DNA from: Methylotenera sp.
Lineage (GTDB): Bacteria > Pseudomonadota > Gammaproteobacteria > Burkholderiales > Methylophilaceae
DNA: 64,000 nt
NCBI GenBank assembly: GCA_035460465.1
Contig: DATHWQ010000032.1
Location: 33,427-97,426 of the forward strand
Direction of reading: 5' to 3'
Part shown: positions 2,071-54,806 of the stretch, in pieces
How the letters are laid out: each line of letters opens with the position of its first letter
Numbering within the stretch: position 1 is the first letter of the stretch
Program-made: the position numbers and the translations under genes
The notes under the pieces: model-generated
The model's database searches: none
Seen by the model: the letters and a program-made list of their open reading frames with translations, nothing else
Told to the model about the DNA's origin: nothing

Positions 2071-3264
2071 TTAGGCTTTTTTAGCAGGCTTGGTTGCTGC
2101 ATGTGGCGCTGATGGCATCTCACCCTGTGCATGTGGTGATACAGGTGCACCAGGACGTAACTTGATAATATTATCGACAATGACTTTTTCGCCTAAATTA
2201 AGACCGCTCAAAACTACCCAGTCTTGCCCTACCCAGTTACCCACTGCGATTTGTTTAACTGTAGCCTCATTTTTTTCGTTTGCGACATAAACAAATTTGC
2301 CTAGGTCATTCGTTAACACCGCAGTTTGCGGCACAACAAACACACCATCTTGCTGACCAGTTGTTACGCGAATGCGTACAAACTGACCTGGTAATAAACT
2401 TTTATCATTATTCTCAAATGCAGCGCGCAGTTGCTGTGTGCCCAATTGTGGGTCTATGCTGCTGGAAGCAAAATTCAACTTACCTTTTTTGGCATACTCT
2501 TTGCCATTCGGCAATATCAATTTCACTTCTTTCACATTCGCTTGTGTTAAACGACCACCAAGCGCAGCAAACTCATTATCAGACAAGCTAAAGCGCACCC
2601 AGATTGGGGTGATTTGGCTGACAGTAGTCAATAAACTTGAATTCGGACTTACCAATGCACCCTCAGAAAACTCGAAACGGCCAGCTACACCTGATAGCGG
2701 TGATGTCACTGTGGTGTAAGACAGATTCAATTCGGCTTCACGTACACTAGCCTCATATTGTGCAAGCGCTGCACGGGCTAAAGAATTATCAGAGCCTGCA
2801 TTATCAGCCTCACGCTGACTGATTGATTGCGTCGCCAACAAGCCCTGTAAACGTTGTGCTTCACGCTGTGTTTGCTCAACACGTGCTCTTTGCTGGGCTA
2901 ATTGTGCTTTTGCGTTGGAGAGTGCGATTTGAAATGGCACAGGGTCAATTAAGAACATCGCCTGCCCTGCCTGAATTGTAGAGCCTTCTTCAAACAGTTT
3001 TTTAAGTAAGATACCACCAACACGCGGGCGAATCTCAACTTCTTTTGCACCCTCGGTTTGAGCAACGGCCTCAGCACTGATAGGCACACTTGTGGGTTGC
3101 ATCTCGATCACACTCACTGGCATGGCTGGCATTTGCCCACCGCCCTGTGATGCAGCATCACCTTTTTTTCCACATCCAAACAATACCAAGCTAGAAATTA
3201 AAATAACTATGGCAGCTTGAGAAACCGTTCTTTGTTGATATTGTTTAGTTGATTCGAATTCCAT
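2071..3264 (-). CDS. RND efflux periplasmic adaptor (AcrA/MexA family lipoprotein)
   Basis: Lipobox LFGC; EIRPRVGG and LLPGQFVR motifs; in an operon with the RND permease. Confidence 0.95.
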   Translation of the reverse strand: MEFESTKQYQQRTVSQAAIVILISSLVLFGCGKKGDAASQGGGQMPAMPVSVIEMQPTSVPISAEAVAQTEGAKEVEIRPRVGGILLKKLFEEGSTIQAGQAMFLIDPVPFQIALSNAKAQLAQQRARVEQTQREAQRLQGLLATQSISQREADNAGSDNSLARAALAQYEASVREAELNLSYTTVTSPLSGVAGRFEFSEGALVSPNSSLLTTVSQITPIWVRFSLSDNEFAALGGRLTQANVKEVKLILPNGKEYAKKGKLNFASSSIDPQLGTQQLRAAFENNDKSLLPGQFVRIRVTTGQQDGVFVVPQTAVLTNDLGKFVYVANEKNEATVKQIAVGNWVGQDWVVLSGLNLGEKVIVDNIIKLRPGAPVSPHAQGEMPSAPHAATKPAKKA

Positions 3265-3339
3265 TCATTACTCCATGTCTCTAATTACATTATGTTTATT
3301 ATGCGCCTGTTACATTAACCGTAGTCAAAAACGCTTGCT

Positions 3340-3386
3340 TACATTCAAGTTTGTATGTATATTATATACAAACAAGAATGTATGTA
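3340..3386. promoter_or_regulatory. Tandem AcrR/TtgR-type operators
   Basis: TACATTCAAGTTTGTATGTA (3340-3359) and TACAAACAAGAATGTATGTA (3367-3386) lie between the divergent acrA-like and acrR-like genes and resemble the TACATACA..TGTATGTA AcrR operator. Confidence 0.75.
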
Positions 3387-3444
3387 AATAACTTTTTGTT
3401 AAAATATGTTTGATATTTATTAGTAATACGGCGGGAAAAGCTAT

Positions 3445-4062
3445 ATGGTAAGAAAGACTAAAGAGGACGCAGAACTTACTCGACAACAAATTATTGATGC
3501 CGCTCGTGAGGTATTTTTAGTTCGTGGCGTCAGTCGTTCCACGCTGGAACATATTGCTGCACAAGCTAATGTCACACGCGGCGCGGTGTATTGGCATTTT
3601 AAAAACAAAACCGAGATTTTTCATGCCCTCCGCGATCAGGTCTTTTTACCACTCATCGACCGCATGGATGATACTTTAGCAGTCGAAAGCGATGTAGACC
3701 CGCTGACTCAAATTGAAAACAGCCTATGCGAGACTATCCATGAGCTTAATGAAAACATGGAAATGCGTCAAACTTATGAAATCATGATGATTAAATGCGA
3801 GTATGTTGATGAATTTGCATCTGTGCTGCAACAGATTCTTAACAACTGCTCAAACATCACAGAAAAGATGCAACTTGCCTACGAGCGCGCTCAATCACTC
3901 AACATGTTAGTTAGTACACATACTCCACGCGCCCTAGCGCTGGATACACATCTATTTTTTGGTGGTTTGCTACATATGTGGGTAAAGGATTTTGACGGCA
4001 GTAGATTCCGCTTTCAAGCGACAGAACTGATTAAATCGCACATCAATCTACGTAGAAAATAA
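3445..4062 (+). CDS. acrR: TetR/AcrR family repressor of the efflux operon
   Basis: MVRKTKEDAELTRQQIIDAA...TRGAVYWHFKNK helix-turn-helix; divergent from the efflux genes. Confidence 0.85.
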   Translation: MVRKTKEDAELTRQQIIDAAREVFLVRGVSRSTLEHIAAQANVTRGAVYWHFKNKTEIFHALRDQVFLPLIDRMDDTLAVESDVDPLTQIENSLCETIHELNENMEMRQTYEIMMIKCEYVDEFASVLQQILNNCSNITEKMQLAYERAQSLNMLVSTHTPRALALDTHLFFGGLLHMWVKDFDGSRFRFQATELIKSHINLRRK

Positions 4063-4863
4063 CTAAGCTGTCTTATTTCTCTTTAAGCTTTTAATGAGTA
4101 GATCGGTTAAATCGACTACATTTGATGTTTCCTCTTCTTTGCTAAAAGCCTCCAAAGGCTCAACTTTTTCCGTTTCACCTAATTCAACTTTACGACTGAC
4201 TAGTTTAAGTATGGTGTCGCTAAACTTATCTTTAAAGTTGCTGGCTTTCCAAGGGAAGGTCATCTCCTTGATTAGTTGATTAGCCATTTTTAGTTCATCC
4301 GCTTTCAAGTCTGTTTTGCCTTTAGGCGGTAGCTTTAAATCAGACATTGTTTTCATTTGTCTTTCCCAGCGGATCGTGTTTAACATCAAGGCTGATTCAA
4401 ATGGGATAAGGGCAGCCAGATGTTGTTTAGTGTGCAACACAACGCGAGAAATCCCAACGACATCCGCTTCAATCATTGCTTCTCGCAGTAACGTATACAC
4501 TTTTTCCCCTTTGCCTGTAGGTTCGAGAAAATAAGGTTGTTCTAATAGAAAAAAAGAAATCTCACGGGCTTTTACAAAAGTTTCGATTTCAATGGTTTGA
4601 GTAGATTTAGGAAAAGCCGCCTTAATTTCATCATCACTTAAAATGACATACTCGCCGTCATCCTGTTTAATCCCTTTCACAATATTTTCTTTTTCAATCT
4701 CTTTACCGGTGCGTTTGTTGATCCGTTTGTAACCCACAGGATCCATAGACCGCTTATCTAACCAGTCAAAATCAATGCCAACATCATGCGCAGCACTATA
4801 GAGTGCAACTGGAACATGCACCAGACCAAAACTGATTGCGCCCTTCCAAATTGCGTGTGCCAT
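4063..4863 (-). CDS. ku: Ku protein, non-homologous end joining
   Basis: MAHAIWKGAISFGLVHVPV N-terminus and VVDLTDLL C-terminus; start chosen at ATG 4863; downstream of ligD. Confidence 0.95.
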   Translation of the reverse strand: MAHAIWKGAISFGLVHVPVALYSAAHDVGIDFDWLDKRSMDPVGYKRINKRTGKEIEKENIVKGIKQDDGEYVILSDDEIKAAFPKSTQTIEIETFVKAREISFFLLEQPYFLEPTGKGEKVYTLLREAMIEADVVGISRVVLHTKQHLAALIPFESALMLNTIRWERQMKTMSDLKLPPKGKTDLKADELKMANQLIKEMTFPWKASNFKDKFSDTILKLVSRKVELGETEKVEPLEAFSKEEETSNVVDLTDLLIKSLKRNKTA

Positions 4864-4889
4864 CAATATTTCCAGTGTTAAAAGCAAGC

Positions 4890-7415
4890 TTACTTAAATA
4901 ATTTAATCGCGGCAGTGATGTCTACTGCGGCATGATTGTATTCTTTCCACGGTTTATTCCCTTTTTCCAACCGAGCGTGAATGGTCTTTATGTTCCAATG
5001 GTTACCACCATCAATGGAGGCCAGTTCATCCCAATTGATAGGAACCGAAACTCCTAGGCCAGGACGTGCTCGCGCCGACCATGCACAGACCGTAGTAGCG
5101 CTCTCACCATTACGAAGATAATCAATATAAATTTTTCCAATACGATTTTTAGGGCCACTTTTTGCGACAAATCTAGCGGGTATTGTTTTCGCAATATGAT
5201 TAACGATGGCTTCTGACAAGCCTTTTACTTGCTCCCAGTTGTATTTCATTTTGAGTGGAACGACAATATGCAAGCCTTTCCCACCACTTGTTTTTAGGAA
5301 TGTGGGTAATGGAATTTCAGCTAAAAAAGCTTGTACCATCTGCGCTGCTTCTTGTACCTGCTGCCACTGCACTCCTTCGCCAGGGTCCAAGTCAAAAACT
5401 ATTCTATTCGGTTGATTAGGATGGTTATTGAAGTTATTCCCCGTGTGGAATTCAATAACATTCCATTGCGCAGAGGTGAGCAGGCCTTGTTCGCTGGCAA
5501 TTTCCAAAAATGGCTCATGCTCCTTATCAAGGTTAACTTGAATCACACCTTCTAATTTTTCAACTTCTGCATGTTTCTGAAAGAAAAGCTCACCTTGTAT
5601 ACCTTGAGGCGCGCGGAGCAGAGCAACAGGCCGATGCGCTAAATGCTCCAGCATTAAATGCTTAACTAGGTCGTAATATTTAACGAGATCAATTTTAGTA
5701 GTTCCCGCATCAATTAAACGATTAGGGTGAGTAACCCTTAAATGACTAGACAAGGTAGACGGTGTTAAATCTTCAGAGGAACCAATAGATGCCATAGGCT
5801 TAATGACTTCACGCGTGATTTGATCGGCAGGTTTATCGGTTCTTAATCCATGAAATACAGGATGACGTAAGCGCCCTTCTTCGGTCCATTCCCGATAAGA
5901 AACTTCTGCTAATAATTTTGCCTTCGCCCAATGAGGTTTACCCATCAAGATTTTTGGCGGTTTTGGAAAAGGAGAAGCTTTAGAAGCCAGCGCATCAAGT
6001 TTAGACTTGATATCAATTAAAGATTTCTGATCAAATCCAGTACCTACATTGCCGGCATAGGTAAGCTCACCATGTTCGTTATGCACACCTAGCAACAAGG
6101 CTCCAAACCCTTGCCGCGAACCTTTTGGCTCGGTATAGCCTGCAATCACAAACTCTTGCCTGTAGCTGCATTTAATCTTAACCCAGCTAGAAGTTCTTCT
6201 CGGTAAATAATGAGAGTTACGATGTTTGGCAATGATTCCTTCTAAGCCAAGTTTACAGACTGAAGCAATCAGGTTTTTAGCTGATGTTTCAAAAACCTCG
6301 CTAAGCCGCACTGTTCCAGATGTCTTTTTTTCCAGAGTATGTTTTAACAGGGCTTTACGCATCATCAATGGCACATACTCCAAATTCATTCCATTGAAAT
6401 ATGGAAGGTCAAATAAATATAGAATGATGTTATTAGAGTTATCAGTATCCATGGCCCGCTGTAGCAGGCCGAAGTCGGGAATATCATTGTCATCCAACAC
6501 GACTATTTCGCCGTCATACCACCCTGAGGGTAATTTCAATTTCGAAATTTCTGCGTGTAGGCTTTTTAGTTTAGACGTCCAGTCATTACCGTTTCGACTG
6601 AATAGTTTGATGTCATTATCTTCAATACGCATCAGAAGACGATAACCGTCAAACTTTATTTCATAGATCCACTCATCATTGTTTTTAGGCGGACTATCAG
6701 TGAGTACCGCTAATTGAGGTGCCAATTTCGTTGGTAATTTTCCTTTGCTGGCGCCAGCTTTTAATAGCAAACTATCACTACTTAAATCTTCCGGTTTTAG
6801 TTCCCTGGTTTCATTAGTGGTTTCTTTAGAGGCAGGCGTTACAGATGTATTTCTTTTAAAGGATTTTAAAGATGAAACGCTCTCTGGCAATTCATCCACA
6901 ACACTGTAGTCCTGTGCTGCTTTAGCGAACTCATCTTTTTCTTTTATTAACAGCCAAGGTTCCTGCTTAACGCTTTTACCTTTCATTCGCACCAGAGCCC
7001 AATTGCCCTGTAGTTTTTGACCGTTCAACTGAAACTTAAGATTGCCTTCTTTATAACCTTCTTCGGGATTACCTACCGGCACCCAATATCCTTTATCCCA
7101 CACAATGACTTTGCCCGCGCCATATTGTTTGGCGGGAATAGTACCTTCAAAACTTGCATAGGAAATTGGATGATCTTCGACATGAACAGCCAGTCGCTTA
7201 TCTTTAGGGTCATAACTGGGGCCTTTAGGAACCGCCCAGCTTTTTAACGTGCCATTTAGTTCAAGTCGAAAATCATAATGCAGCCTGCTTGCCCAATGCT
7301 TCTGTATCACAAATGAAAGCGCGTTTTTATTCGCCACGCCTTTATCAACGGGTTCAGGCGTTATTGAAAAGTTTCGTTTGGCTTTGTATTTCGCCAATAA
7401 ATCGTAAGCATTCAT
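4890..7415 (-). CDS. ligD: DNA ligase D (phosphoesterase-ligase-polymerase), NHEJ
   Basis: FVIQKHWASRLHYDFRLE (phosphoesterase), EIKFDGYR (ligase KxDG), VFDLDP and KTSGGKGLH (primase-polymerase). Confidence 0.97.
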   Translation of the reverse strand: MNAYDLLAKYKAKRNFSITPEPVDKGVANKNALSFVIQKHWASRLHYDFRLELNGTLKSWAVPKGPSYDPKDKRLAVHVEDHPISYASFEGTIPAKQYGAGKVIVWDKGYWVPVGNPEEGYKEGNLKFQLNGQKLQGNWALVRMKGKSVKQEPWLLIKEKDEFAKAAQDYSVVDELPESVSSLKSFKRNTSVTPASKETTNETRELKPEDLSSDSLLLKAGASKGKLPTKLAPQLAVLTDSPPKNNDEWIYEIKFDGYRLLMRIEDNDIKLFSRNGNDWTSKLKSLHAEISKLKLPSGWYDGEIVVLDDNDIPDFGLLQRAMDTDNSNNIILYLFDLPYFNGMNLEYVPLMMRKALLKHTLEKKTSGTVRLSEVFETSAKNLIASVCKLGLEGIIAKHRNSHYLPRRTSSWVKIKCSYRQEFVIAGYTEPKGSRQGFGALLLGVHNEHGELTYAGNVGTGFDQKSLIDIKSKLDALASKASPFPKPPKILMGKPHWAKAKLLAEVSYREWTEEGRLRHPVFHGLRTDKPADQITREVIKPMASIGSSEDLTPSTLSSHLRVTHPNRLIDAGTTKIDLVKYYDLVKHLMLEHLAHRPVALLRAPQGIQGELFFQKHAEVEKLEGVIQVNLDKEHEPFLEIASEQGLLTSAQWNVIEFHTGNNFNNHPNQPNRIVFDLDPGEGVQWQQVQEAAQMVQAFLAEIPLPTFLKTSGGKGLHIVVPLKMKYNWEQVKGLSEAIVNHIAKTIPARFVAKSGPKNRIGKIYIDYLRNGESATTVCAWSARARPGLGVSVPINWDELASIDGGNHWNIKTIHARLEKGNKPWKEYNHAAVDITAAIKLFK

Positions 7416-7517
7416 GATGTTTTAAAAGTACATCCCCAAACATTTAATTGATTCAAGCCCCTGCTGGTTAGTATCACATCTCTCGTGATGAGTTCCTTGA
7501 ACTCATCCGATTAGAAA

Positions 7518-7562
7518 ATTATCACTTACGCTTTAAAAATACTCTGTCTGTTATCGAACATA
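7518..7562 (-). promoter_or_regulatory. Putative CRP/FNR-like activator box plus -10 element facing ligD-ku
   Basis: Minus strand reads TA-TGTTCG-ATAA-CAGACA-GAG (core 7560-7545), then GATAAT (7523-7518) 21 nt after the core. Confidence 0.7.
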
Positions 7563-7637
7563 GAGCTAAAAATCATGTTTTACAGACATACTCATTTGAA
7601 CCAAGCGTTCGTAAGACTCATATCAATTTATTAGAGT

Positions 7638-7682
7638 TATGTGCGCTATCGTACTGACGATAATTAGAGTGATATTTAAGAT
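7638..7682 (+). promoter_or_regulatory. Putative CRP/FNR-like activator box plus -10 element facing asmA
   Basis: TA-TGTGCG-CTAT-CGTACT-GAC (core 7640-7655), then TAAGAT (7677-7682) 21 nt after the core. Confidence 0.7.
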
Positions 7683-7873
7683 TTAAATCTAAGTAATAAT
7701 TAGTTATTGAGATAGATAGTTTTACTTACTATGCAGGAAAGCGCCTACAAATTAATCAGCAATTATCCTATTTGTTACTTGGCCTTCTACATTCAATATT
7801 GAGAGCCATGATTATTATCTTTAATCATATTTAATTAGCATTAAAAAGAAGTATTTCAAGCTAAGGATTTCCA

Positions 7874-9946
7874 ATGCTGACATTCAAAAAGATAGCTAAT
7901 AAACCGCTATTTTTTTCAGTTTCAATAATCTTGGTTTTGATATCAATGATTGTTGTTTTTGAAATGCTTGGCTGGCCGTTTCTCAAAGAACCCTTAGAGA
8001 AATTTATGGCACAGAATCTAGAGCGTTCTATCAAAATAGACAGACCATTTAAACTTAAATTAATAGGTGGTTTGCAAATCAATGCGGCTGGGTTCTGGAT
8101 ATCTGCCCCTGCCGAATTTAAAGTCCCTCACCTAGCCAATGCAAAGGGACTTGAGCTCCAATTACGCTACAGCGATTTATGGAACATCAAAGATGGTGAT
8201 CCATATGTCATTAAATCAATTAAAGCCGAACAAGTGGATGCAAATTTAGTCCGGCTTTTAAATGGTAAATCCACATGGCAATTCAATAAAGATGAGAATG
8301 ACCCTATTCGACCTTTTCCAGTGATTCAAACACTGGTGATTCGCAAAGGCCAAGCCAATGTAAATGATAGCCTTACCAAGGCAAACCTCGTCGTCAGCTT
8401 TGACACCAACGAAGGGAAAAGTAATACAGCTTCAATCTCAAAAGTTGCTATTAAAGGTGATTTCCGTGAACGTAAATTAAAAAGCGAATTAATCACGCAC
8501 GGTTTTCTGCCAATTGCTTCTCAAGATAAAAATTCACCACCTGTGTCGTCAAAAGGTTGGCTGGAATATGGGAATGTCCATATGGATTTTGATGGCTTTG
8601 TTTACGACCTATTTGGTGAACAAACTGTTAAAGGAAAATTGGCCGTAAATGGTTCATCTTTAGGGGAGTTGGGCGATTTACTTAGCATCACACTCCCGCG
8701 TACTACAGCATTTAAGATTATGAGTAGTGTAGAGAGAAATCAGGAAGGCTGGCTCATTGATATTGCGTCAGCACGTGTTGGACAAAGCGATTTGTACGGT
8801 AAATTTAAATATGACACGCGTCCTGAAAAGTCTATCCTACAAGGAGAGCTTAAAGGTAAGCGCTTTGTGTTGGCAGATTTAGCGCCTGCATTTGGTAGCG
8901 CAGATGTAGAGCCAGGCAAAAGAGAGCGTATATTTCCTGATAAACCTTTGGATTTTGCTACCTATAACCGTATGAATGCAGATATCAGTGTAGATATTGA
9001 TTATGTAGATCTAGGCAAAGCTTTTCGTGAGCCAATCAAACCATTCAAAGCAAGTTTAGACCTTAATAAAAATAAATTATCTCTCGCCAAAATTGATGCG
9101 AGAACTGCTCAGGGTAGTATTTCAGGAGATATCTATATTGATGCGCATGAGCAGAAAAAGGTAGCAAATCCTCAGCAAGAAAGAAACCTGGAACAGATAA
9201 AACCTGATTGGAATATCAATTTAGCAGTTAAGGATATCAATCTGGAAAAATGGTTACAAATCTCTGCTGCTCGTAAAAAAAATGCTAAAGAAGCGAATAA
9301 AAGTGAAGCCTCCCAAGCCTATGTAACAGGATTTTTAAATGGCAAAGCTAAACTCGAGGGCAAAGGTAACTCTACCGCCCAGTTATTACAATCCCTTAAT
9401 GGCGACCTCTCGCTCTATGTACGTAACGGAAAAATTTCTCACTTGATAGTAGAAGCGGTCGGATTAGATATAGCGCAAGCCATCGGAGTTTTAATCGAAG
9501 GCGACAAACCTATCATCATGGAATGCGCGGTCATGGATTTTAAAGCTAAGCAAGGCATCTTAAAATCTAATGTAGCCTTAATTGATACACCTGTTACCAC
9601 AATTGTGTTAGATGGAAATATCGATATGGGTGAAGAGAAATATGATCTACGAATGATGGCAGAGCCTAAAAACTTCTCCCCATTTACGATTCGATCCCCT
9701 ATTCATTTAACAGGCACTTTTCTTAATCCAGATGTTGCACCAGATGCTGCGCCAATAGGAGCACGCGTTGCGGGCGGGATTCTGCTAGCTTTAATAAATC
9801 CGCTTGCTGCCATTCTTCCATTTCTTGACCCAGGTAAAATCAGCAGCAACACCAATGATGTGACATGCAATAACACCTTGACCTATATGAAAAAGAATAA
9901 CAAACAAGGAGTTGAGAAGAACAAGCTAAGCTCAGTAAGCAGATGA
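7874..9946 (+). CDS. AsmA family protein (YhjG-like)
   Basis: 690 aa with an N-terminal TM followed by GWPFLKEP, beta-rich body, and C-terminal LALINPLAAILPFLD typical of AsmA/YhjG. Confidence 0.85.
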   Translation: MLTFKKIANKPLFFSVSIILVLISMIVVFEMLGWPFLKEPLEKFMAQNLERSIKIDRPFKLKLIGGLQINAAGFWISAPAEFKVPHLANAKGLELQLRYSDLWNIKDGDPYVIKSIKAEQVDANLVRLLNGKSTWQFNKDENDPIRPFPVIQTLVIRKGQANVNDSLTKANLVVSFDTNEGKSNTASISKVAIKGDFRERKLKSELITHGFLPIASQDKNSPPVSSKGWLEYGNVHMDFDGFVYDLFGEQTVKGKLAVNGSSLGELGDLLSITLPRTTAFKIMSSVERNQEGWLIDIASARVGQSDLYGKFKYDTRPEKSILQGELKGKRFVLADLAPAFGSADVEPGKRERIFPDKPLDFATYNRMNADISVDIDYVDLGKAFREPIKPFKASLDLNKNKLSLAKIDARTAQGSISGDIYIDAHEQKKVANPQQERNLEQIKPDWNINLAVKDINLEKWLQISAARKKNAKEANKSEASQAYVTGFLNGKAKLEGKGNSTAQLLQSLNGDLSLYVRNGKISHLIVEAVGLDIAQAIGVLIEGDKPIIMECAVMDFKAKQGILKSNVALIDTPVTTIVLDGNIDMGEEKYDLRMMAEPKNFSPFTIRSPIHLTGTFLNPDVAPDAAPIGARVAGGILLALINPLAAILPFLDPGKISSNTNDVTCNNTLTYMKKNNKQGVEKNKLSSVSR

Positions 9947-9966
9947 GTGAGTATCAATAAATTTAG

Positions 9967-10011
9967 TATGTACGTTAACGCACAGAGCCATTAATGGTTT
10001 AAGAATATGCT
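9967..10011 (+). promoter_or_regulatory. Putative CRP/FNR-like activator box plus -10 element
   Basis: TA-TGTACG-TTAA-CGCACA-GAG (core 9969-9984), then TATGCT (10006-10011) 21 nt after the core. Confidence 0.75.
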
Positions 10012-10083
10012 GCAATTTTTGTACGAGATTTAGAGCAACTGCTTTAAATACTTGTGCTCTTTTTTATTTATATAAAGGAATTT

Positions 10084-10362
10084 ATGATGAATCATTCAAA
10101 ATTAACATTAACACTATTTACTGCGCTTAGTATTACTGCTTTAGGTCTTACTGCTTGCGATAAACCGACTGTAGTCAATGTTCCCGCAGATACTGTTGTT
10201 GTGCCAGGGCCTCCAGGGCCTGCAGGTGCACCGGGCGAACCAGGTAAAACTGGAGATGCTGGCGAAACCGGCAACACTGGTGACAAAGGAGTCCAAGGTG
10301 AAACTGGCGATAGCACTACTGTCATTATTACGCCGCCCGCTGAACCTACAACAACCAACTAA
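10084..10362 (+). CDS. Small collagen-like lipoprotein
   Basis: RBS AAGGAA before ATG 10084; lipobox LTAC; 12 consecutive Gly-X-Y triplets (GPP GPA GAP ... GET GDS). Confidence 0.85.
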   Translation: MMNHSKLTLTLFTALSITALGLTACDKPTVVNVPADTVVVPGPPGPAGAPGEPGKTGDAGETGNTGDKGVQGETGDSTTVIITPPAEPTTTN

Positions 10363-10441
10363 AGTATGTATCAAAAAAGTTAGCCATTTTCAATTGTTAT
10401 ATTTATTCAATTGTAAGGTTTAACTAATTAAGGAGAGTGTC

Positions 10442-10600
10442 ATGAGCTTAGGCACAATATTATTGATTATTTTAGTTCTACTATTAGTCGGGGCAATTCC
10501 CACCTGGCCTCATAGTAGAAGCTGGGGTTATGGGCCAAGTGGTGGTTTGGGGCTCATCTTAATTGTGATAATCGTTTTGTTATTACTTGGACGAATTTAA
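10442..10600 (+). CDS. DUF3309 family small membrane protein (52 aa, absent from ORF track)
   Basis: RBS AGGAG; [52 protein letters not shown]; the [16 protein letters not shown] signature; TAATG coupling to the next gene. Confidence 0.9.
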
Positions 10601-11952
10601 TGCGTCTTTGCAGTTCTGCAACCCAAGATATTCCTCATCGTTTAGTTGCAATGGCAATCAGCGCCATGTTATTGACGCTGATTGCGTGTACCCAAGAAAC
10701 CAAGCACACGCCTATTCCCGGGGTAGGTATTGGACCAAATCCAGTTTTACCGCAACCCAAAAAGTCTTTCATGCCAGTACTGAACATCGCACCCGCAATA
10801 GGCTGGCCTGCCAATGCTAAGCCCATTGCTGCAACATATCTAACCGTGGCAGCATTCAAGCGAAAACTCAACCATCCGCGCTGGCTTTACGTACTTCCCA
10901 ATGGCGATGTACTTGTTGCAGAAACCAATGCGCCGCCAAGGCCGGATGACCGTAAGGGTGTAAAAGGCTGGGTGATGGGTTTAATGATGAAAAAAGCAGG
11001 CGCCACTGTACCGAGTGCTAATCGCATCACACTACTACGTGATACCGATAAAGACGGTATTGCCGATGTAAATTCAGTGCTATTGCAAAACCTCAACTCT
11101 CCGTTCGGTATGACGCTAGTTGGTAATGATTTGTACGTAGCCAACGCTGATGCTGTGGTGAAGTTTCCCTATGCTAGCGGTGATTTAAAAATTACTGCAC
11201 CAAGCGTTAAAGTCGTCGATTTACCCGGTGGGCCACTTAATCATCATTGGACGAAAAATATTATTGCTAATCCAGACGGCACCAAGTTATATGTGACGGT
11301 TGGCTCAAATAGTAACGTGGCTGAACGCGGCATGGCGGCAGAAGAAGGTCGCGCGGCGATTTGGGAAGTGGATATTAAAAGCGGCGCGCACCGTATATTC
11401 TCTTCCGGCTTACGTAACCCGAATGGTCTGGCTTGGGAGCCAGAAACCGGTTCTTTATGGACAGTAGTGAATGAACGTGATGAAATCGGTAATGACTTGG
11501 TACCCGATTATTTAACTTCAGTTCAAGATGGCGGCTTTTATGGTTGGCCATATAGTTATTATGGTCAAAATGTAGATGTTCGAGTACAACCGCCTAACCC
11601 AGAGTTGGTGGCTAAAGCGATATCGCCAGATTACGCATTAGGATCACATACAGCCTCGTTAGGATTAGCCTCATCTGCTAACGCCAATTTGCCAGCACCT
11701 TATACAAAAGGCATGTTTATCGGTCAGCATGGTTCGTGGAATCGCAAGCCGCATAGTGGCTACAAGGTGATTTTTATACCCTTTGCAAATGGTAAACCTG
11801 ACGGTATGCCAATTGATGTGCTTTCAGGGTTTCTTAGCCCAGAAAGTAAGGCTTACGGCCGGCCGGTAGGCGTAGCACTTGATAAGCAGGGTGCATTGTT
11901 AGTAGCAGATGATGTAGGCAATGTAATCTGGCGTGTCACCGCGAATAAGTAA
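10600..11952 (+). CDS. Glucose/L-sorbosone dehydrogenase family (PQQ-dependent beta-propeller) lipoprotein
   Basis: [35 protein letters not shown] and GRPVGV motifs. Confidence 0.9.
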
Positions 11953-12070
11953 TATCTAACACAACACTACGTGAGAAAAACATACAGCCAATAAAATAAA
12001 CTAGGTACAAAGGCTTGTAGCTGCGTTATTCTGCAGCTATCATGCGCGTAAGTTGTGACGGGGAGTTGTT

Positions 12071-12418
12071 ATGGATATTCATACTGGTGAAATTTACGGT
12101 AAACAAACCGCTAGCAAATTCGTGATGTACAACGTACTTAAAGTCAGCAAAGCGACTAAAACCAGCAACGAAATAGTCACACTGCAAAATATCGACAATC
12201 CACTCAGCCTGTTCGAGACAACCGCTCAAAAACTGGCTGCTTCAGGCTACATACGTATCAGCCAAACACCTTACATCGATTTAGAAGCTGCCACACCCAA
12301 ACGCCGCAAAGCCGCTAAAAAACCTACACGCTGCCCACTAACTTTTGATTTTTTAGAAGACCGTGCAGATAGCGAAAGACCCGCGCCGATTATTCCAGAC
12401 CTATTTAGTCCTGCCTAG
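12071..12418 (+). CDS. Hypothetical protein
   Basis: 115-aa ORF with GGGAG RBS and host-like codon usage; no family recognised. Confidence 0.65.
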   Translation: MDIHTGEIYGKQTASKFVMYNVLKVSKATKTSNEIVTLQNIDNPLSLFETTAQKLAASGYIRISQTPYIDLEAATPKRRKAAKKPTRCPLTFDFLEDRADSERPAPIIPDLFSPA

Positions 12419-12426
12419 GTTAGATA

Positions 12427-13248
12427 TCACTTCCACGGACAAGCCTCGGATTTGACGAAGTCTGGATCAGCTGGGCCCAACACTACGAGGTACTCTGGGG
12501 CGCTGAACTGAGCAAACAAACGAAGAATGACGTGAATTTCTGACCCATTGGCGCGAACTTGCATCGAGTGAAGCCCCTTCGTTTCATTCATGGGTTCACC
12601 AGTCCATGACCCAACCCAGCGCCCAATACACGGATCTTCGCCAAGGATGACGCGGCGAATCGGCGTATTCGTGAACGGCGCAATGCCAAGTACGTAGATA
12701 GCAGCGCTGAATGCGATCTTTGCTAAAGTTCGGGCAAATTGCTCGGGTGAGAAAGTCAATCGTGCACCGACGAAGTCAACGCCATGGATAAGGCTGACTT
12801 CCTCGAATGACGGTCCAGCGATGTGAGTGAAATTTAGTTGGTTGGATAATCTTAGATCCAACGGCATCCCAGTTAGAATACTTGGCAGTGGAAATACAGG
12901 TGTCGGCAGGTACAACGGAAACTCGGTAGGCGAGACATGAATTGTTCTCTGAAATCCATCTGACTCTAGCACCAAAGGGATGCTCAACGACCTTTTCTCG
13001 GGTCGCCGAGTCTGCATCGAAAGAACTGCGCGAATTACTGGCAGGAGACCTTGAAGAGTGTCCCGCTCGAAACGATGTGTGATATCAGCGCATTGAGAGC
13101 AACTCGCTCGCAACAATGTCCACGGCCCATTTAATCCGTACGGGATAGCGTGCTCTTTTCCAAGATCGTTACCAACGGAACCGCAGTAGATACACTCACC
13201 TATGTCACGTGCGTTGCTTGGTATTGGGAGAGATGTCACAGCTTCCAT
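12427..13248 (-). CDS. HNH endonuclease-like protein (HNH_5 type), probable gene cassette
   Basis: CIYC...EHAIPYGLNG...CSQC zinc/HNH pattern; visibly more GC-rich than its flanks; bracketed by GTTAAGT and ATCTAAC. Confidence 0.75.
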   Translation of the reverse strand: MEAVTSLPIPSNARDIGECIYCGSVGNDLGKEHAIPYGLNGPWTLLRASCSQCADITHRFERDTLQGLLPVIRAVLSMQTRRPEKRSLSIPLVLESDGFQRTIHVSPTEFPLYLPTPVFPLPSILTGMPLDLRLSNQLNFTHIAGPSFEEVSLIHGVDFVGARLTFSPEQFARTLAKIAFSAAIYVLGIAPFTNTPIRRVILGEDPCIGRWVGSWTGEPMNETKGLHSMQVRANGSEIHVILRLFAQFSAPEYLVVLGPADPDFVKSEACPWK

Positions 13249-13317
13249 TTCTGTTACTTAACGTGAATACACCCTCATTGATGCAATTAATTACATCAAC
13301 TCTCTCAAAACCATCAC

Positions 13318-14655
13318 TTAATCCCTTGGTGGCCCACCCCATAAGTCATGACCATCTGCGCTGTAAATCTCAACCTCTACAAAATCGCCGGGTGTTAAAC
13401 CTTCTGCATCTTCAAGATACACTACACCATCAATTTCCGGCGCATCTGCTTTAGTACGGCCAATTGCTTGGAAACTACCGTCTTCCAGCTCGTTAATCTC
13501 ATCAACTAACACGGTTTGCATGCTACCGATCTTAGTCTGTAGCTTTACTGCACTGATGCGCTCTTGCACTTCCATAAACCTTGCGAGACGCTCTTGCTTA
13601 ACTTCTTCTGGCACTTGGTCTGGTAGTTCGTTGGCTTTTGCACCATCTACTGCGGAGTAAGCAAAGCAACCTACTCTATCCAACTGCGCTTCCTCCAAGA
13701 AGTCGAGCAGCATTTTGAAGTCGTCTTCCGTCTCACCCGGGAAGCCTGCGATAAAGGTACTTCTAACCGTAATATCTGGACAGATTTCGCGCCATGCTTT
13801 AATGCGTGCCAAGTTATTTTCTGCGTGTGCTGGGCGTTTCATGGCTTTCAGAATACGCGGGCTAGCATGCTGAAACGGTACATCCAAATACGGTAGAATC
13901 AAACCATCAGCCATCAATGGCACCACGTCATCTACGTGTGGATAAGGGTACACATAATGCAAACGCACCCATACGCCTAACTCACTTAGCGCTTTACTCA
14001 AATTCGTCATATGCGTTTTGACTGGGCGACCATTCCAGAAACCTGGGCGGAATTTCATATCAACGCCGTAGGCCGAGGTGTCTTGTGAGATGACTAAAAT
14101 CTCTGAAACCCCCGCATTTACTAGATTCTCTGCTTCATTCATCACTTCGCCGATTGGGCGACTCACTAAATCACCACGCATGCTTGGAATGATGCAGAAG
14201 CTGCAACGATGGTTACAACCTTCTGAAATCTTAAGGTAAGCATAATGACTAGGTGTTAAACGTACGCCTTGTGGTGGCACTAAGTCAGTGTAAGGGTCAT
14301 GCAGTTTTGGCAGGTTGGCGTGCACGTGCGTCATCACTTCTTCCAGCGCATGTGGGCCGGTGACAGCCAATACACTTGGGTGCGCGGCTTCTACCACGCC
14401 AGCTTTGGCACCTAAACAGCCAGTGACAATCACTTTTCCGTTTTTATTGATGGCTTCACCAATTGCATCCAGCGATTCCTGTACTGCAGAATCAATAAAG
14501 CCGCAGGTATTGACGACAACCAAATCAGAGTCTTCATAGCTACCTGATATTTCATAGCCTTCTGCACGCAATTGGGTGAGAATACGCTCTGCGTCTGAAC
14601 CTGCTTTAGGGCAACCTAGGGATACGAAACCAACTTTTGGATTTGCTAAACTCAT
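13318..14655 (-). CDS. rimO: Ribosomal protein S12 methylthiotransferase RimO
   Basis: VSLGCPK, NTCGFI, radical [12 protein letters not shown]-terminal TRAM domain (DAPEIDG). Confidence 0.97.
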
Positions 14656-50306: not shown

Positions 50307-51311
50307 ATGAAGAAATTTATTAATAATGTGGATGATATTCTCGTTGAAAGCCTGAGCGGTTTCGCCAGTGCACATGCTGATTTAGTGAGCCTGCATTTAG
50401 AACCTAACTTTTTAACACGCAAGAACAAAGCACCTAACAAGGTCGCCATCATCTCTGGCGGTGGCTCTGGGCACGAACCTTTGCATTCGGGGTACATAGG
50501 TTATGGCATGCTGGATGCTGTCTGCCCTGGCCATGTATTCACCTCGCCCACACCAGACCAAATGCTAGCCGCAGCAGAAGCCGTGCATGAGGACAAGGGC
50601 ATACTTTTCATCGTTAAAAACTATTCGGGCGATGTGATGAACTTTGAAATGGCGGCAGAAATGCTACCGTTTGAATCTGCCACCGTGCTTACCAGTGATG
50701 ACGTCGCCGTCATGAACTCCACCTATACAACCGGTCGCCGTGGCGTAGCGGGTACAGTGATTGTAGAAAAATGTGTAGGCAGCTTGGCAGAAACCAGCGC
50801 CAGCCTACAAGACTGTAAAACATTGGGTGACAAAGTCAATAATCGTATCGCAAGCATGGGGGTGGCACTCACTAGCTGCACCGTCCCCGCTGCGGGACGC
50901 CCTACTTTTGACATTCACCATACCGAACTGGAAATGGGTGTCGGCATTCACGGTGAGCCAGGTCGCAGGCGCGAAGCCATGCGCGATGCAGATTTAATAG
51001 TGAAAGACTTAGTGAATGCAATCATTGAAGACTTTAATGCAAGAGGTTTGAACCATGCAAAGAACAGCGAAGCATTGTTACTTGTGAACGGGTTTGCCGG
51101 CACACCGCTCATGGAGCTATATCTACTTTACAACACGGCAGCTCGGTTGTTTAACGCGCATGGCATCAAGATTGCGCGCTCATTAGTAGGCAACTATACA
51201 ACTGCTCTGGACATGGCAGGCGCATCCATTACGCTTTGCTTACTTGATGATGAAATCAAACAACATTGGGATAGCCCAGTGCATACGCCTGCCCTAAGAT
51301 GGAAAATCTAA
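50307..51311 (+). CDS. dhaK: Dihydroxyacetone kinase substrate-binding subunit
   Basis: SGGGSGHEP, FTSP, KNYSGD, GRRGVAG and GIHGEPG motifs. Confidence 0.95.
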   Translation: MKKFINNVDDILVESLSGFASAHADLVSLHLEPNFLTRKNKAPNKVAIISGGGSGHEPLHSGYIGYGMLDAVCPGHVFTSPTPDQMLAAAEAVHEDKGILFIVKNYSGDVMNFEMAAEMLPFESATVLTSDDVAVMNSTYTTGRRGVAGTVIVEKCVGSLAETSASLQDCKTLGDKVNNRIASMGVALTSCTVPAAGRPTFDIHHTELEMGVGIHGEPGRRREAMRDADLIVKDLVNAIIEDFNARGLNHAKNSEALLLVNGFAGTPLMELYLLYNTAARLFNAHGIKIARSLVGNYTTALDMAGASITLCLLDDEIKQHWDSPVHTPALRWKI

Positions 51312-51344
51312 TTAAGGGATTTTTGATTGATGGATGAGTTAGGG
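51312..51344 (-). mobile_element. Truncated attC of cassette 2
   Basis: Minus strand CCCTAAC-TCATCCATCAA lies 3 nt after the stop; CCCTAAC is complementary to the cassette's 5' core GTTAGGG; no intact R' end. Confidence 0.7.
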
Positions 51345-51347
51345 TAA

Positions 51348-51773
51348 TTATTCAATATAAAGGTCAATAATCGCATGCTTTTTCTCATTATTAGTAATTA
51401 CTCTCACAAAACCACCGTATTTAAAATCAGATGGTTGAACGCTATATTCAATATTTACCGCAAATTCAGAGCCTACTTTTGGCAGGCCCAGTGTATGACT
51501 GGTAGCGTTAATAGCTATTTTTTCGAAGTTGTAACCTACCAATAATTGTGGAAATTCATTTTGAGATATTTCAACAGAACAAGTCGTTAACACATCTGTT
51601 GTAATTGGTGACTCACATTCGATAACTCGTAACGATTTTGGTGGTGTTTTAATATTAAGAATATTCGCCACCATTTGCGGTTGTTGTAAATAATAGACTA
51701 ACCACAAAATCATTATTGCAAGATATAGGGCAACAAAAAACCATATAAATGCTTTTCCAATTTTGTGCCACAT
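51348..51773 (-). CDS. Gene cassette 2: hypothetical membrane-anchored protein
   Basis: AT-rich; N-terminal TM; ATG lies 7 nt after the attC core GTTAGGG. Confidence 0.75.
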   Translation of the reverse strand: MWHKIGKAFIWFFVALYLAIMILWLVYYLQQPQMVANILNIKTPPKSLRVIECESPITTDVLTTCSVEISQNEFPQLLVGYNFEKIAINATSHTLGLPKVGSEFAVNIEYSVQPSDFKYGGFVRVITNNEKKHAIIDLYIE

Positions 51774-51780
51774 TATTAAG

Positions 51781-51840
51781 CCCTAACGTTTGAATTAAGG
51801 GGCTGGCTTTAGCCAGTCCCGCTTGAATGATTGGTTAGGT
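51781..51840 (-). mobile_element. Integron attC site (60 bp)
   Basis: Minus strand ACCTAAC-CAATCATTCAAGCGGGACTGGCTAAAGCCAGCCCCTTAATTCAAAC-GTTAGGG: RYYYAAC...GTTRRR ends, central imperfect palindrome, and overlap with the upstream stop codon. Confidence 0.92.
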
Positions 51841-52134
51841 TTTGTCATTACTTACAACCATGTAATTGGCAAAGTTAGTAATGTAGTCACTTAAGTTTTC
51901 ATCAAGCATTTTGCGATACTCATTCACAAAATACTCTATTGTTTCAGCTTTTGCAGAGGTCATTTCTTCTGAGTTAGTAAAACCAGAAGCACTTACCCAA
52001 GCATTAAATCTAGCAACAGAGTACATCATAGATGCACTAACCTTACCGCGACTAATATCAGCCAGCTGTTCATTTGATAGGTGAATATGAGCGTCTGCTC
52101 TTTCGTAAAATTTATCGTCAACTTCTTCTGCCAT
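51835..52134 (-). CDS. Gene cassette 1: DUF3144 family protein
   Basis: DDKFYERADAHIHLSNEQ...GKVSASMMYSVARFNAW; preceded by core GTTAGGT, with its stop inside ACCTAAC. Confidence 0.85.
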   Translation of the reverse strand: MAEEVDDKFYERADAHIHLSNEQLADISRGKVSASMMYSVARFNAWVSASGFTNSEEMTSAKAETIEYFVNEYRKMLDENLSDYITNFANYMVVSNDKT

Positions 52135-52135
52135 T

Positions 52136-52275
52136 TTAAAACCTAACAGTAATTATAGAGACCCATGGGTCTCTTATTAATAAATAGATGATTGAGATGC
52201 ATGGCTGGAATCCCTTGTCCTTTCTTGCTTTTATTGTTTCTGTGTCTCTATATTCAATTATTAAATATAGAGACC
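52136..52275. other. Cassette attachment region: dif/attI-like site with four AGAGAC arms
   Basis: Minus strand GGTCTCTATAA-TTACTG-TTAGGTTTTAA; palindrome AGAGACCCATGGGTCTCT (52157-52174); inverted repeat GTCTCTATATT/AATATAGAGAC (52244-52274). Confidence 0.5.
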
Positions 52276-52434
52276 GGGTGTCCGTGCAAAAACATTCTAG
52301 ACGAAGTTGCTTTAAATAGGAAATTGGTGATTATTGAATGATCCCTTTGTGCCGCTTATCGTCAACTCTCAATAAGCAGAACTAACTCTCCCCCTAGATA
52401 TTCCAACACATATATTGATTAAGAAAATCATTGT

Positions 52435-52479
52435 TATGTTTGCTATCGAACAGACTGCTCATGCGCGGTAATTTAGTAT
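52435..52479 (+). promoter_or_regulatory. Putative CRP/FNR-like activator box plus -10 element
   Basis: TA-TGTTTG-CTAT-CGAACA-GAC (core 52437-52452), then TAGTAT (52474-52479) 21 nt after the core. Confidence 0.7.
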
Positions 52480-52577
52480 CTAGCAGTTATGTAGATGTAG
52501 TTCAAATTTCGCTGGCTTGTTGGGGCGTATAGCTAGTGATCATAGATTTGATGTCTCGCCCAGTTAGGAGTAATCAA

Positions 52578-52904
52578 ATGTATAGGATGCTAATTGTTAT
52601 ACCATTTACAGCTCTTCTGCTAAGCGCGTGCATCGTAGCGCCCCCGGACAGAGTGGTTGTGGCACCGGCACTGCCAGTGATTGTGGAATTTGACACAGAG
52701 CCATATTACTATCAACAAGGATATTACTATTATTACCACGATAACTACTGGCGCTACTCACAATCAAGATCAGGGCCTTGGGTAGAACTTCCTCGGAGCC
52801 ACTATCCTAAAGAGATCCGTTACAAAGGTCGCGGCGATGGGCGTGGTAGAGACAGAGATAGGGACAGAGATCATGATCGTGACCACCGTGATCGGAGATA
52901 TTAA
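52578..52904 (+). CDS. Small Tyr-rich lipoprotein with C-terminal Arg/Asp repeats
   Basis: AGGAG RBS; lipobox LSAC; YYYQQGYYYYYH; RDRDRDRDHDRDHRDRR tail. Confidence 0.8.
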   Translation: MYRMLIVIPFTALLLSACIVAPPDRVVVAPALPVIVEFDTEPYYYQQGYYYYYHDNYWRYSQSRSGPWVELPRSHYPKEIRYKGRGDGRGRDRDRDRDHDRDHRDRRY

Positions 52905-52963
52905 TACTATCGTTTTTGCCTAACGATGCTTTAGAAATGCCAGCGCAAACTGAAGTGTAATTT

Positions 52964-53002
52964 CAACTCAGGTCAAGGTCTCTATGACTTTGATCTGAGT
53001 TG
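52964..53002. terminator. Long hairpin, probable terminator
   Basis: CAACTCAGGTCAAGGTC-TCTAT-GACTTTGATCTGAGTTG. Confidence 0.55.
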
Positions 53003-53189
53003 GTCTTAATGCGCCCCAAAGTAGACACTGAAAATCTCATATTTTCGATGTCAGTCTAATCTTACAAAATAATCATTGGTAGTCTGACATTCATAACGAT
53101 GTATTTTTTCTATAGTGTCTAATATCTAGCTATAGCTTAGGCAATAATTGCTCGCTTGGGATATTTATTATCCAACCAGGAGATATATT

Positions 53190-53678
53190 ATGGAAACCCA
53201 CCCTATCAAATCAACATTACTCGCCTTGTGCACCCCACTGCTATTTTCAAGTAGCTTTGCATTCGCTGACCAAAGTTTTGTTGACACTAAGACTGGTCAG
53301 CCAATGAAAATTGATTCGGGGCTTTTTAATACCGAACAGTCCAAGAAATTCCTAAGCACTGGTGTAAACCCCTACAACGGTAACGCGGAAGCCATTGCCA
53401 GCGGTAAAAAGCATTATCAAACCTACTCCTGTGCTCAATGTCATGGTGCCCAAGCTCAGGGTCAAACTGCCGGTGGCCTGACAGGCCCTAGATATAATCA
53501 TTCTAAAAGCACTACGGATAAGGGAATGTTCGAAATCATCTGGGCAGGGACAAATGGCGGGATGAGTGGTAAAGGTCAAGGTGTAATGGACCCCGGTAAT
53601 CTCAGTAACGGGTTATCCCCTGATGACACCTTAAGGCTAATGGCGTGGGTCAGAAGTCAGGGCGGGACCACGAAGTAG
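53190..53678 (+). CDS. Periplasmic c-type cytochrome, cytochrome cL (MxaG/XoxG)-like
   Basis: AGGAG RBS; signal peptide; FLSTGVNPY...CAQCHG...TDKGMFEIIWAG pattern. Confidence 0.8.
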   Translation: METHPIKSTLLALCTPLLFSSSFAFADQSFVDTKTGQPMKIDSGLFNTEQSKKFLSTGVNPYNGNAEAIASGKKHYQTYSCAQCHGAQAQGQTAGGLTGPRYNHSKSTTDKGMFEIIWAGTNGGMSGKGQGVMDPGNLSNGLSPDDTLRLMAWVRSQGGTTK

Positions 53679-53699
53679 AGAAATCTAATATCTAGTCAC

Positions 53700-53729
53700 T
53701 ATAACCGGGGTGCAATTACCCCGGTTATA
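53700..53729. terminator. Bidirectional terminator
   Basis: TATAACCGGGGT...ACCCCGGTTATA between convergent genes. Confidence 0.75.
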
Positions 53730-53761
53730 TATCGCTTAAATATTACCTTCAATTAAAGTAA

Positions 53762-54673
53762 TTAATGACTTAAAAAATAGTTAGCGCTATTAACGAATGA
53801 ATCGTGATATTGAAAAATAGAACCATGGTTAGAGTCAGGATAAAGTACCAGTTGTGCATTTTTAAGTAGTTTGTACATGGTAATAGAACCTTCTGTCGCT
53901 AACATCGTGTCATTACTGCCAGTGACAACCAATACTGGCTGGCGTATAGATTTCAGCGTTTTGTGTTCAGGATCAGGCGTGCTTGTCCAGACAATCAGTG
54001 CTTTGCCGTGCGCATCTGCGATTTCTTTACCACTCTCAGGGTCACGATCTTTCGTTCTTGCATACACTCTTGCCAAAAATTCACCAGCAGCTTTTTTACC
54101 TGCATCTGTTTGAGAAAAGAATAAATAATCACGTGGATCAGGCGCATTCTCTCTTGAAAATGCTTCACCAAGTACCTTCATCAAGTTATTACCACCACCT
54201 TGATATGTAGTCCCGGCAAGAATTACTTTATGTACTAATTCAGGATATTGAGCAGCTAATTCCTGAGCAATAAAGCCGCCCATAGAAAAACCGAGTAAAT
54301 CAACTTGTTTGTACCCTAGTGCTTGAATAAATGCATAGGCATCTGTCGTCATTTGCTCAATGTTATCTGCTACTGCGCCATTCGTAGCTCCGACGCCTCT
54401 ATTGTTAAAAACAACAACGGGACGCGTTTTTGCTAAAGCATTAACAACGGCTGGATCCCAGGAATCTATGGTGCCTGTGAAGTGCTGAAGAAATACTAAT
54501 GGCGTACCAGACTTAGGTCCCATAGCACGATATGAAAATTTAACTCCATTTGCTTCGATATATTTGGTCGGCGCAGTTTCAAGAGTGTCTTGTCCAGCGC
54601 TTGCTACGCTAGCCTCAACCATCGAGAAGGTAGCGGTGATAAATAATAGTGATTTTAAAATCTTGCTCATCAT
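53762..54673 (-). CDS. Alpha/beta hydrolase
   Basis: GFSMGG nucleophile elbow, GSND and HG motifs. Confidence 0.9.
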   Translation of the reverse strand: MMSKILKSLLFITATFSMVEASVASAGQDTLETAPTKYIEANGVKFSYRAMGPKSGTPLVFLQHFTGTIDSWDPAVVNALAKTRPVVVFNNRGVGATNGAVADNIEQMTTDAYAFIQALGYKQVDLLGFSMGGFIAQELAAQYPELVHKVILAGTTYQGGGNNLMKVLGEAFSRENAPDPRDYLFFSQTDAGKKAAGEFLARVYARTKDRDPESGKEIADAHGKALIVWTSTPDPEHKTLKSIRQPVLVVTGSNDTMLATEGSITMYKLLKNAQLVLYPDSNHGSIFQYHDSFVNSANYFLSH

Positions 54674-54704
54674 AATTCCTTATTAATGTGTAAATGTGTA
54701 TTTA

Positions 54705-54776
54705 TGTACTACTAAGTACAATATATTAGGAGCAAGAAGGCATGTCAACAATTATTTGTACTTTAAAGTACAAATA
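54705..54776. promoter_or_regulatory. Two TetR operators
   Basis: TGTACTACTAAGTACA (54705-54720) and the perfect 24-bp palindrome TATTTGTACTTTAAAGTACAAATA (54753-54776), between the divergent hydrolase and TetR genes. Confidence 0.8.
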
Positions 54777-54806
54777 TATTAGACAAGGAATTAAAAACGA
54801 CATAAG

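Follow-up and report, generated by a model that had tools for sequence, protein, structure and literature searches.

The 64-kb window analyzed here, a stretch of the genome of Methylotenera sp. (C32:33427-97426), carries near one end an operon for non-homologous end-joining (NHEJ), in which ligD is followed by ku, together with a divergently oriented asmA-family gene and a three-gene operon that starts with a small lipoprotein gene. A palindromic box, which is the subject of this study, is found ahead of each of these three transcription units, and a fourth copy lies further into the window ahead of another lipoprotein gene. The identities that a first-pass annotation of this DNA had assigned to ligD, ku, asmA and the DUF3309 gene were confirmed by Pfam searches; the Tyr-rich, RD-repeat lipoprotein behind the fourth box (52536-52904) was without a Pfam family match. 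The coordinates of all features are collected in Table 1.

Table 1. Boxes, -10-like hexamers, genes and segments. Positions refer to the window unless a genome (G), contig (C) or locus (L) is named.
Feature	Position	Strand	Remarks
Box 1	7542..7562	-	21-mer TATGTTCGATAACAGACAGAG; core 7560-7545; faces ligD-ku; 25.7-27.7 bits
-10-like hexamer GATAAT, ligD-ku promoter	7518..7523	-	21 nt past core of box 1
Box 2	7638..7658	+	TATGTGCGCTATCGTACTGAC; core 7640-7655; faces asmA; divergent from box 1
-10-like hexamer TAAGAT, asmA promoter	7677..7682	+	
Box 3	9967..9987	+	TATGTACGTTAACGCACAGAG; core 9969-9984; ahead of lipoprotein operon
-10-like hexamer TATGCT	10006..10011	+	
Box 4	52435..52455	+	TATGTTTGCTATCGAACAGAC; core 52437-52452
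-10-like hexamer TAGTAT	52474..52479	+	
ku, 274 aa	4063..4887	-	second gene of ligD-ku operon; Pfam PF02735
ligD, 841 aa	4890..7415	-	phosphoesterase, ATP-dependent ligase and primase-polymerase domains (Pfam)
asmA-family gene, 690 aa	7874..9946	+	Pfam PF05170
Three-gene operon behind box 3	10084..11952	+	
Lipoprotein, 92 aa	10084-10362	+	first gene of box-3 operon; collagen-like repeat, LTAC lipobox
DUF3309 membrane peptide	10442-10600	+	box-3 operon; Pfam
GSDH/NHL beta-propeller protein	10600-11952	+	box-3 operon; Pfam
Tyr-rich, RD-repeat lipoprotein gene behind box 4	52536..52904	+	LSAC lipobox; likely real start is Met at 52578
TetR-family regulator gene beside ku	3445-4062		MAATS/AcrR-type C-terminal domain; adjoins HlyD-type membrane-fusion gene
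Accessory segment, 8.9 kb	3133..12071		TetR gene, ku, ligD, asmA, lipoprotein operon; ~290 bp instead in G028
Regulator A	G000:C35:16340-17050 (L001:8340-9050)		recognition helix GVRRVGVT; own gene-oriented box
Regulator B	L001:5510-6235		recognition helix GVRREGVT; 43% identical to A; without own gene-oriented box
Cyclic beta-1,2-glucan-synthase-like gene, 2,929 aa	G000:C35:2375-11164 (L174:375-9164)	-	

The core of the box is a 16-bp palindrome, TGTnCG-N4-CGnACA, within the extended consensus TA-TGTnCGnTAnCGnACA-GAC. When TGTNYGNTAWCRNACWG was searched with at most one mismatch, it was found at 4 places in the 64 kb, corresponding to 6 strand-wise matches compared to 0.33 expected, and this number was reached in none of 100 shuffles. 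Re-reading of the sequence returned the four boxes at the positions given by the first-pass annotation, and in 4/4 cases a -10-like hexamer starts exactly 21 nt after the core, as had been noted there. If the hexamer is taken as positions -12 to -7, the core centre falls at -41.5. The class II geometry proposed earlier fits all four window sites, and the same spacing is conserved around 80 orthologous regulator genes (see below).

A class II site of E. coli cAMP-CRP, as at galP1, consists of TGTGA-N6-TCACA centred at -41.5. The box shares with such sites the length of 16 bp, the two-fold symmetry and the TGT...ACA outer arms, and as in class II promoters it is centred 29.5 bp upstream of the point where the -10 element begins and overlaps a weak -35 element. 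It differs from the CRP site in its inner arm, which is nCG instead of GA, and in its TA centre.

The genome (1.48 Mb in 46 contigs, 70.7% complete) was scanned with a position weight matrix built from the four window sites, which identified nine further strong sites, eight of them within a 14-kb stretch of contig C35 (locus L001) and one on contig C34. With a matrix from all 13 sites, these sites scored 24-31 bits; the only other matches of at least 16 bits were the reverse strands of the same 13 palindromes, and a shuffled genome gave 1 match. All 13 sites are intergenic and each points at the next gene, and nearly all of the nine sites outside the window share the spacing of 21 nt between core and hexamer. 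The outside sites precede two BON genes (one of them BON plus EF-hand), genes for a ferritin-like protein, an entericidin, an M48 peptidase and an FAD/Rieske oxidoreductase, a Crp/Fnr gene, and a phospholipase-D/cardiolipin-synthase-like gene that heads a three-gene unit. The largest regulon member, a cyclic beta-1,2-glucan-synthase-like gene with GH94 and glucoamylase domains, is located behind a 26.7-bit box. A seemingly gene-free stretch behind site L001:3309, which gave no match in an Rfam search, was identified as the 5' part of this gene, which extends beyond the end of the locus. The first-pass annotation had called for such a scan and had named matches ahead of CsbD, BON, ferritin-like or trehalose genes and of a Crp/Fnr gene as support. 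Matches ahead of BON, ferritin-like and Crp/Fnr genes were indeed found, at a site frequency above background (13 against 1 in the shuffled genome) and with stress and envelope genes behind the sites.

It had also been stated that the activator is not encoded in the window, in agreement with the location of the candidate regulator genes on contig C35. There, two Crp/Fnr paralogs, here called A and B, are both encoded inside the site cluster. The Crp family foreseen for the activator was thus recovered, but the single regulator was not, as two paralogs are encoded. Regulator A has a 30-bit gene-oriented box ~150 nt ahead of its start.

Regulator A matched the Pfam family HTH_Crp_2 (PF13545) with 45.7 bits (cut-off 27) and the cNMP-binding family PF00027 with 26.9 bits, just below the cut-off of 27.5; most of its homologs, which belong to a family of 2,589 matched clusters, have no recorded PF00027 match. 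The AF2 model of A (pLDDT 85.8) comprises a beta-roll (residues 30-108), a long helix (120-146), the helix-turn-helix (HTH) helices 173-180 and 184-196, and a wing. By Foldseek the fold is CRP-like (TM 0.6-0.8), with GlxR and M. tuberculosis CRP matched at TM 0.70-0.77 over ~224 columns and an identity below 20%. A is less than 20% identical to any solved Crp/Fnr protein, and its best solved relatives by sequence were found with E values of only ~1e-7. A search of the ESM Atlas returned generic Crp/Fnr names only.

Several named branches of the superfamily were compared with A. In cyanobacterial NtcA promoters, GTA-N8-TAC is centred at -41.5 and followed by a TAN3T -10 box. The promoters studied here resemble them in the palindrome at -41.5, the TAnnnT hexamer and the poor -35 element; the recognition helix is similar (R-V-x-V-T), and in the PDB, NtcA ranks with the sequences that match A best (E 6e-7). 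However, A as an NtcA was rejected, with 17.5 bits against a cut-off of 244.95 for TIGR03697, no nitrogen genes in the regulon and a different effector. The best match of A in NCBIfam, which holds no model for it, was YeiL of E. coli (NF007707), and as the score of 25 bits falls far short of the required 180, this assignment was rejected as well. YeiL is the third Crp/Fnr member of E. coli, has a link to stationary phase and contains conserved cysteines; we know of no YeiL binding site for comparison. The FNR/FixK/Dnr branch (TTGAT-N4-ATCAA, E--SR) was excluded by the box TGTnCG-N4-CGnACA and by the helix RRVGVT/RREGVT. A is thus assigned to the Crp/Fnr superfamily, but apparently to none of its named branches.

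In an alignment of 22 orthologs of A, the cysteines C143, C220 and C222 are invariant and C29 is nearly so. CRP lacks the three invariant cysteines. They are part of a CNRFH motif, where the dimer helix ends, and of a C-terminal SCxCY motif before the last helix, and B keeps both as CNR(H)H and SCxCY. These motifs may form a sensing site. Because of the three invariant cysteines and the weak match to the cNMP-binding family, a redox or metal signal is, as a guess, favoured over cAMP.

The conservation of the box was analyzed in 80 loci centred on orthologs of A (1.29 Mb), which belong to Proteobacteria, mainly Beta- and Gammaproteobacteria, and include Methylotenera, other Methylophilaceae, Methylomonas, Crenothrix, Nitrosomonas, Nitrosospira, Rhodocyclaceae, Accumulibacter, Thiobacillus and Iodobacter, among others. 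In these loci, where the box is roughly 300 times more frequent than in the background, 458 matrix matches of at least 16 bits were found, compared to about one expected. Among 163 strong sites, TAnnnT occurs at the 21-nt offset in 93, and at any other offset in at most 10. A second count was made with 498 sites that were picked by a symmetric core definition, ignoring the flanks; TAnnnT was found 208 times at 21 nt, with a shoulder of 34 at 22 nt and a background of ~10. The offset histogram of the 498 sites contained no second peak, and none at class I distances. As an observation on the hexamer itself, its fifth base is C in 110 of 190 box promoters of these loci (TAnnCT), which recalls TATACT, the -10 element preferred by sigma-S.

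Sites were also oriented by the -10 element alone, without use of the flanks, and aligned as a logo. T-A was observed before the core and G-A-C after it, on the promoter side only. Of these three bases, the A (+18) is the symmetric counterpart of the T at -1, whereas the G (+17) and the C (+19) do not fit the palindrome, and G-A-C coincides with positions 3-5 of a -35 element with a spacer of 17 bp. This fusion of the promoter-proximal arm with part of a -35 element gives the box its direction.

Such an oriented element at a fixed spacing from a -10-like hexamer would also be expected if the box were the -35 region of an alternative sigma factor promoter, read without a separate transcription factor. 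Transcription of stress genes frequently relies on alternative sigma factors; in Sinorhizobium meliloti, for example, ku and ligD depend on RpoE2 (PMC6379672). However, the promoter-distal half of the box is the reverse complement of the proximal half and is equally conserved, which would be useless to a sigma factor, the -10 element is a plain TAnnnT, and no sigma factor gene recurs in the clusters. A sigma factor promoter is therefore regarded as very improbable.

The box is associated with the genes of the Crp/Fnr regulators. The 149 genes behind strong boxes of the 80 loci include the regulator itself 35 times, BON genes 17 times and CsbD genes 8 times, followed by squalene-hopene cyclase, cyclopropane-fatty-acid synthase, phospholipase D (PLD), DUF3309, GGDEF and Ysc84 genes with three each. 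A gene-oriented box within 350 nt upstream was found for 77 of 103 A-type genes, and 29 of 65 B-type genes have a box that points away from them. Among 41 genomes of Methylophilaceae (completeness is 90% or more and contamination 5% or less in 39 of them), all 8 that carry A have a second, lower-scoring copy, which was B or B-like in the 6/6 checked for helix type, and at least 6 genomes have B alone. In B-only genomes, strong boxes of up to 32.6 bits adjoin B, with -10-like hexamers at the same offset. Both types thus go with the same box. These genomes also bear on the recognition helix: the Val that replaces Glu181 of CRP in A was considered as the cause of the 'n' after TGT and was rejected, since B-only genomes keep the Glu and yet have the same box. 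More distant homologs (38-48% identity) are encoded on plasmids or secondary replicons of Burkholderia, Cupriavidus, Ralstonia and Variovorax; that of B. cenocepacia, the only one with its helix read, has a B-like helix.

A different DNA-binding protein might read the box, with the Crp/Fnr genes being only targets. The TetR-family regulator encoded beside ku is a candidate, as its gene lies inside the same 8.9-kb island and TetR operators are also short palindromes. But the C35 cluster and the 80 loci are organized around Crp/Fnr genes and TetR genes are not among the recurrent neighbours, and the MAATS/AcrR-type domain and the HlyD-type neighbour suggest a local control of efflux. TGT-N10-ACA outer arms and the -41.5 geometry are moreover hallmarks of Crp/Fnr sites. 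Reading of the box by such a protein is considered improbable.

From the sequences compared, the boxes are predicted to be class II activation sites of the Crp/Fnr paralogs A and/or B, with a probability of roughly 0.75. Several observations weigh against this. Among sequencing runs, no RNA run that contains window 4000-12000 was found. As to which paralog binds, a box in gene orientation precedes only 8 of the 65 neighbouring B-type genes. In the family sample, the exact pattern was found in 11/16 regulator-positive and also in 5/24 regulator-negative genomes, with 0-3 matches per genome. The regulon list is partial, the genome being 71% complete. In six other genomes of the family, the surroundings of ku were searched for boxes; one locus ended at a contig end, and in the five readable ones, where ku precedes ligD, no box was found within 8 kb upstream. 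Finally, the box overlaps the -35 element, and its promoter-side GAC is part of TTGACA.

This overlap is what would be expected if the same Crp/Fnr proteins acted as repressors at the -35 element and were released by a stress signal, which is the main rival explanation. The -10 hexamers are fairly good, and a basal activity without an activator is conceivable. However, only 3/6 positions match the -35 consensus, and a -10 spacing that is precise to a single base in about 200 sites of 80 genomes is typical of class II activation, while operator positions usually vary. Most A genes carry a box, which fits positive feedback, and to our knowledge every well-studied example of a Crp/Fnr protein bound at -41.5 (CRP at galP1, FNR, NtcA) is one of activation. 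Repression is therefore judged unlikely, though less so than the other alternatives.

If the boxes are activation sites, the set of targets resembles the regulons of RpoS in Gammaproteobacteria and of EcfG/RpoE2 in Alphaproteobacteria, with BON/OsmY-like, CsbD, katE, cyclopropane-fatty-acid synthase, cardiolipin-synthase-like, Dps/ferritin-like, Ku and LigD genes. Unlike those regulons, it is marked by a predicted activator box with a sigma-70-type -10 element and not by a sigma factor promoter, and unlike the CRP regulon its targets are related to stress and the envelope and are not catabolic. An operator of the SOS type (LexA-like) that responds to DNA damage could be suspected from the presence of a repair operon, ligD-ku, and from CTGT/ACAG-like arms that recall the LexA box of gammaproteobacteria. 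But 12 of the 13 target units are envelope or general-stress units and only ligD-ku concerns repair, no recA, lexA, uvr or translesion-polymerase gene was found behind a box, and the geometry is of the activation type, so that an SOS operator has next to no probability. As a side observation, a GAF-GGDEF-EAL gene (L001:16895-18994, minus strand) borders the C35 box cluster, and GGDEF genes are found behind boxes in three other genomes; these are hints that the regulon could be linked to cyclic di-GMP signalling.

The NHEJ genes were compared with their nearest relatives. The closest LigD proteins are encoded in Methylotenera metagenome-assembled genomes (MAGs) and are 94% and 86% identical, which together with the regulator matches puts the organism in or near Methylotenera. 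At the locus with 94% identity (L085), the same divergent box pair is located between asmA and ligD; the TetR gene follows ligD directly there (L085:6538-6633), and the ku that intervenes in the window is missing. At the locus with 86% identity (L084:1245-7430), one box heads an operon of a large-subunit katE-type catalase, a low-affinity iron permease, ligD and ku, which as judged from the sequence would link oxidant defence and end-joining in one transcript. In a third Methylotenera MAG (L122), boxes lie before katE and before a gene that precedes ligD-ku. The box at ligD is common only to such close Methylotenera relatives, and the majority of the remaining LigD loci, among them those of Massilia and Telluria, are without it. 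Ku is encoded in 7 of the 41 family genomes, and all 7 carry the regulator. The first-pass annotation had included NHEJ in the regulon, which holds for this ligD-ku operon and for close Methylotenera relatives, but not in the sense of a conserved core member, as the five box-less ku-ligD loci of the family show. The control of NHEJ by the box is probably a recent, lineage-specific recruitment, which would have a parallel in the RpoE2-dependent ku and ligD genes of S. meliloti (PMC6379672).

The segments that bear the boxes were compared with G028, a complete genome from the same genus. The 8.9-kb segment with boxes 1 to 3 is replaced there by ~290 bp, the stretch 51288-57524 with box 4 has no match at the DNA level, and neither has the whole 19-kb C35 locus. 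G028 is also without the regulator, the exact pattern and Ku. Because all box-bearing segments compared are missing from G028, they are regarded as an accessory module. The G+C content of the ligD-ku stretch is 39.9%, compared to about 44.5%. The stretch 51288-57524 lies at a synteny break, with its left flank near 785 kb and its right flank near 665 kb of G028, and contains cassette-like small genes, box 4 with its lipoprotein gene, a cytochrome c gene, an alpha/beta hydrolase gene and a TetR gene. Beside the 8.9-kb island, a separate small insertion of 0.9 kb (12408-13327) has no counterpart in G028 while both of its flanks align; it contains a 273-aa gene (12427-13248) without a Pfam family, which the first-pass annotation had described as an HNH nuclease.

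The regulator is found in only 17 of the 41 genomes of Methylophilaceae. None of these 41 genomes exceeded the cut-off of the rpoS model TIGR02394, the best matches being RpoD-, RpoH- and FliA-like, and the E. coli control passed; in the 71% complete assembly of the organism itself, neither RpoS nor RpoD was matched. Because the regulator is present in only 17/41 genomes, the system is seen as an add-on stress module in a family that lacks RpoS and not as the universal response of this family. Of the general-stress regulon proposed by the first-pass annotation, the kinds of targets were thus recovered, but its scope was not, as the module is accessory and island-borne.

With A and B as activators, a dimeric Crp/Fnr factor would bind the box at about -41.5 of a sigma-70-type promoter. 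In the simplest model of the two types, B would be the primary regulator: it would sense a signal, bind the box and switch on A as positive feedback, along with the 12 other promoters found so far, and A would act as a box-driven amplifier. The envelope would then be remodelled by AsmA, the lipoproteins, BON proteins, entericidin, the PLD/cardiolipin-synthase-like and cyclic beta-1,2-glucan-synthase-like enzymes and the M48 protease. The ferritin-like product would handle iron or oxidants, and in the lineage with the ligD-ku box, LigD and Ku would repair double-strand breaks. A more speculative extension, which is put forward only tentatively and is thought somewhat less probable than not, is that of a mobile, self-contained stress module in which B with its cysteine triad is the sensor and A the amplifier. 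The two regulators and their box-tagged targets would travel together on islands and plasmids through Proteobacteria. In lineages without RpoS, the module would supply a programme for stationary phase or desiccation that sigma factors provide in other bacteria; NHEJ would have been added to it here, and katE in a sister lineage.

In the open-access full-text literature, no description of the A/B subfamily, the box or the regulon was found. Two surveys of the Crp/Fnr family use only the known motifs of CRP, FNR, DNR, NnrR and MalR (PMC3590769, PMC8510549), and the paper on Bcam1349 gives no binding site. Little is understood of the way in which bacteria that have neither RpoS nor EcfG organize a general stress response. 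In the present case, a defined cis-element ties a widespread, unstudied Crp/Fnr subfamily, with members in methylotrophs, methanotrophs, nitrifiers and Accumulibacter, to a classic set of stress genes. In bacteria that carry the box, it predicts when mutagenic end-joining would be switched on, and the system may serve as an example of how a regulon and its regulator are inherited together in the form of an accessory module.

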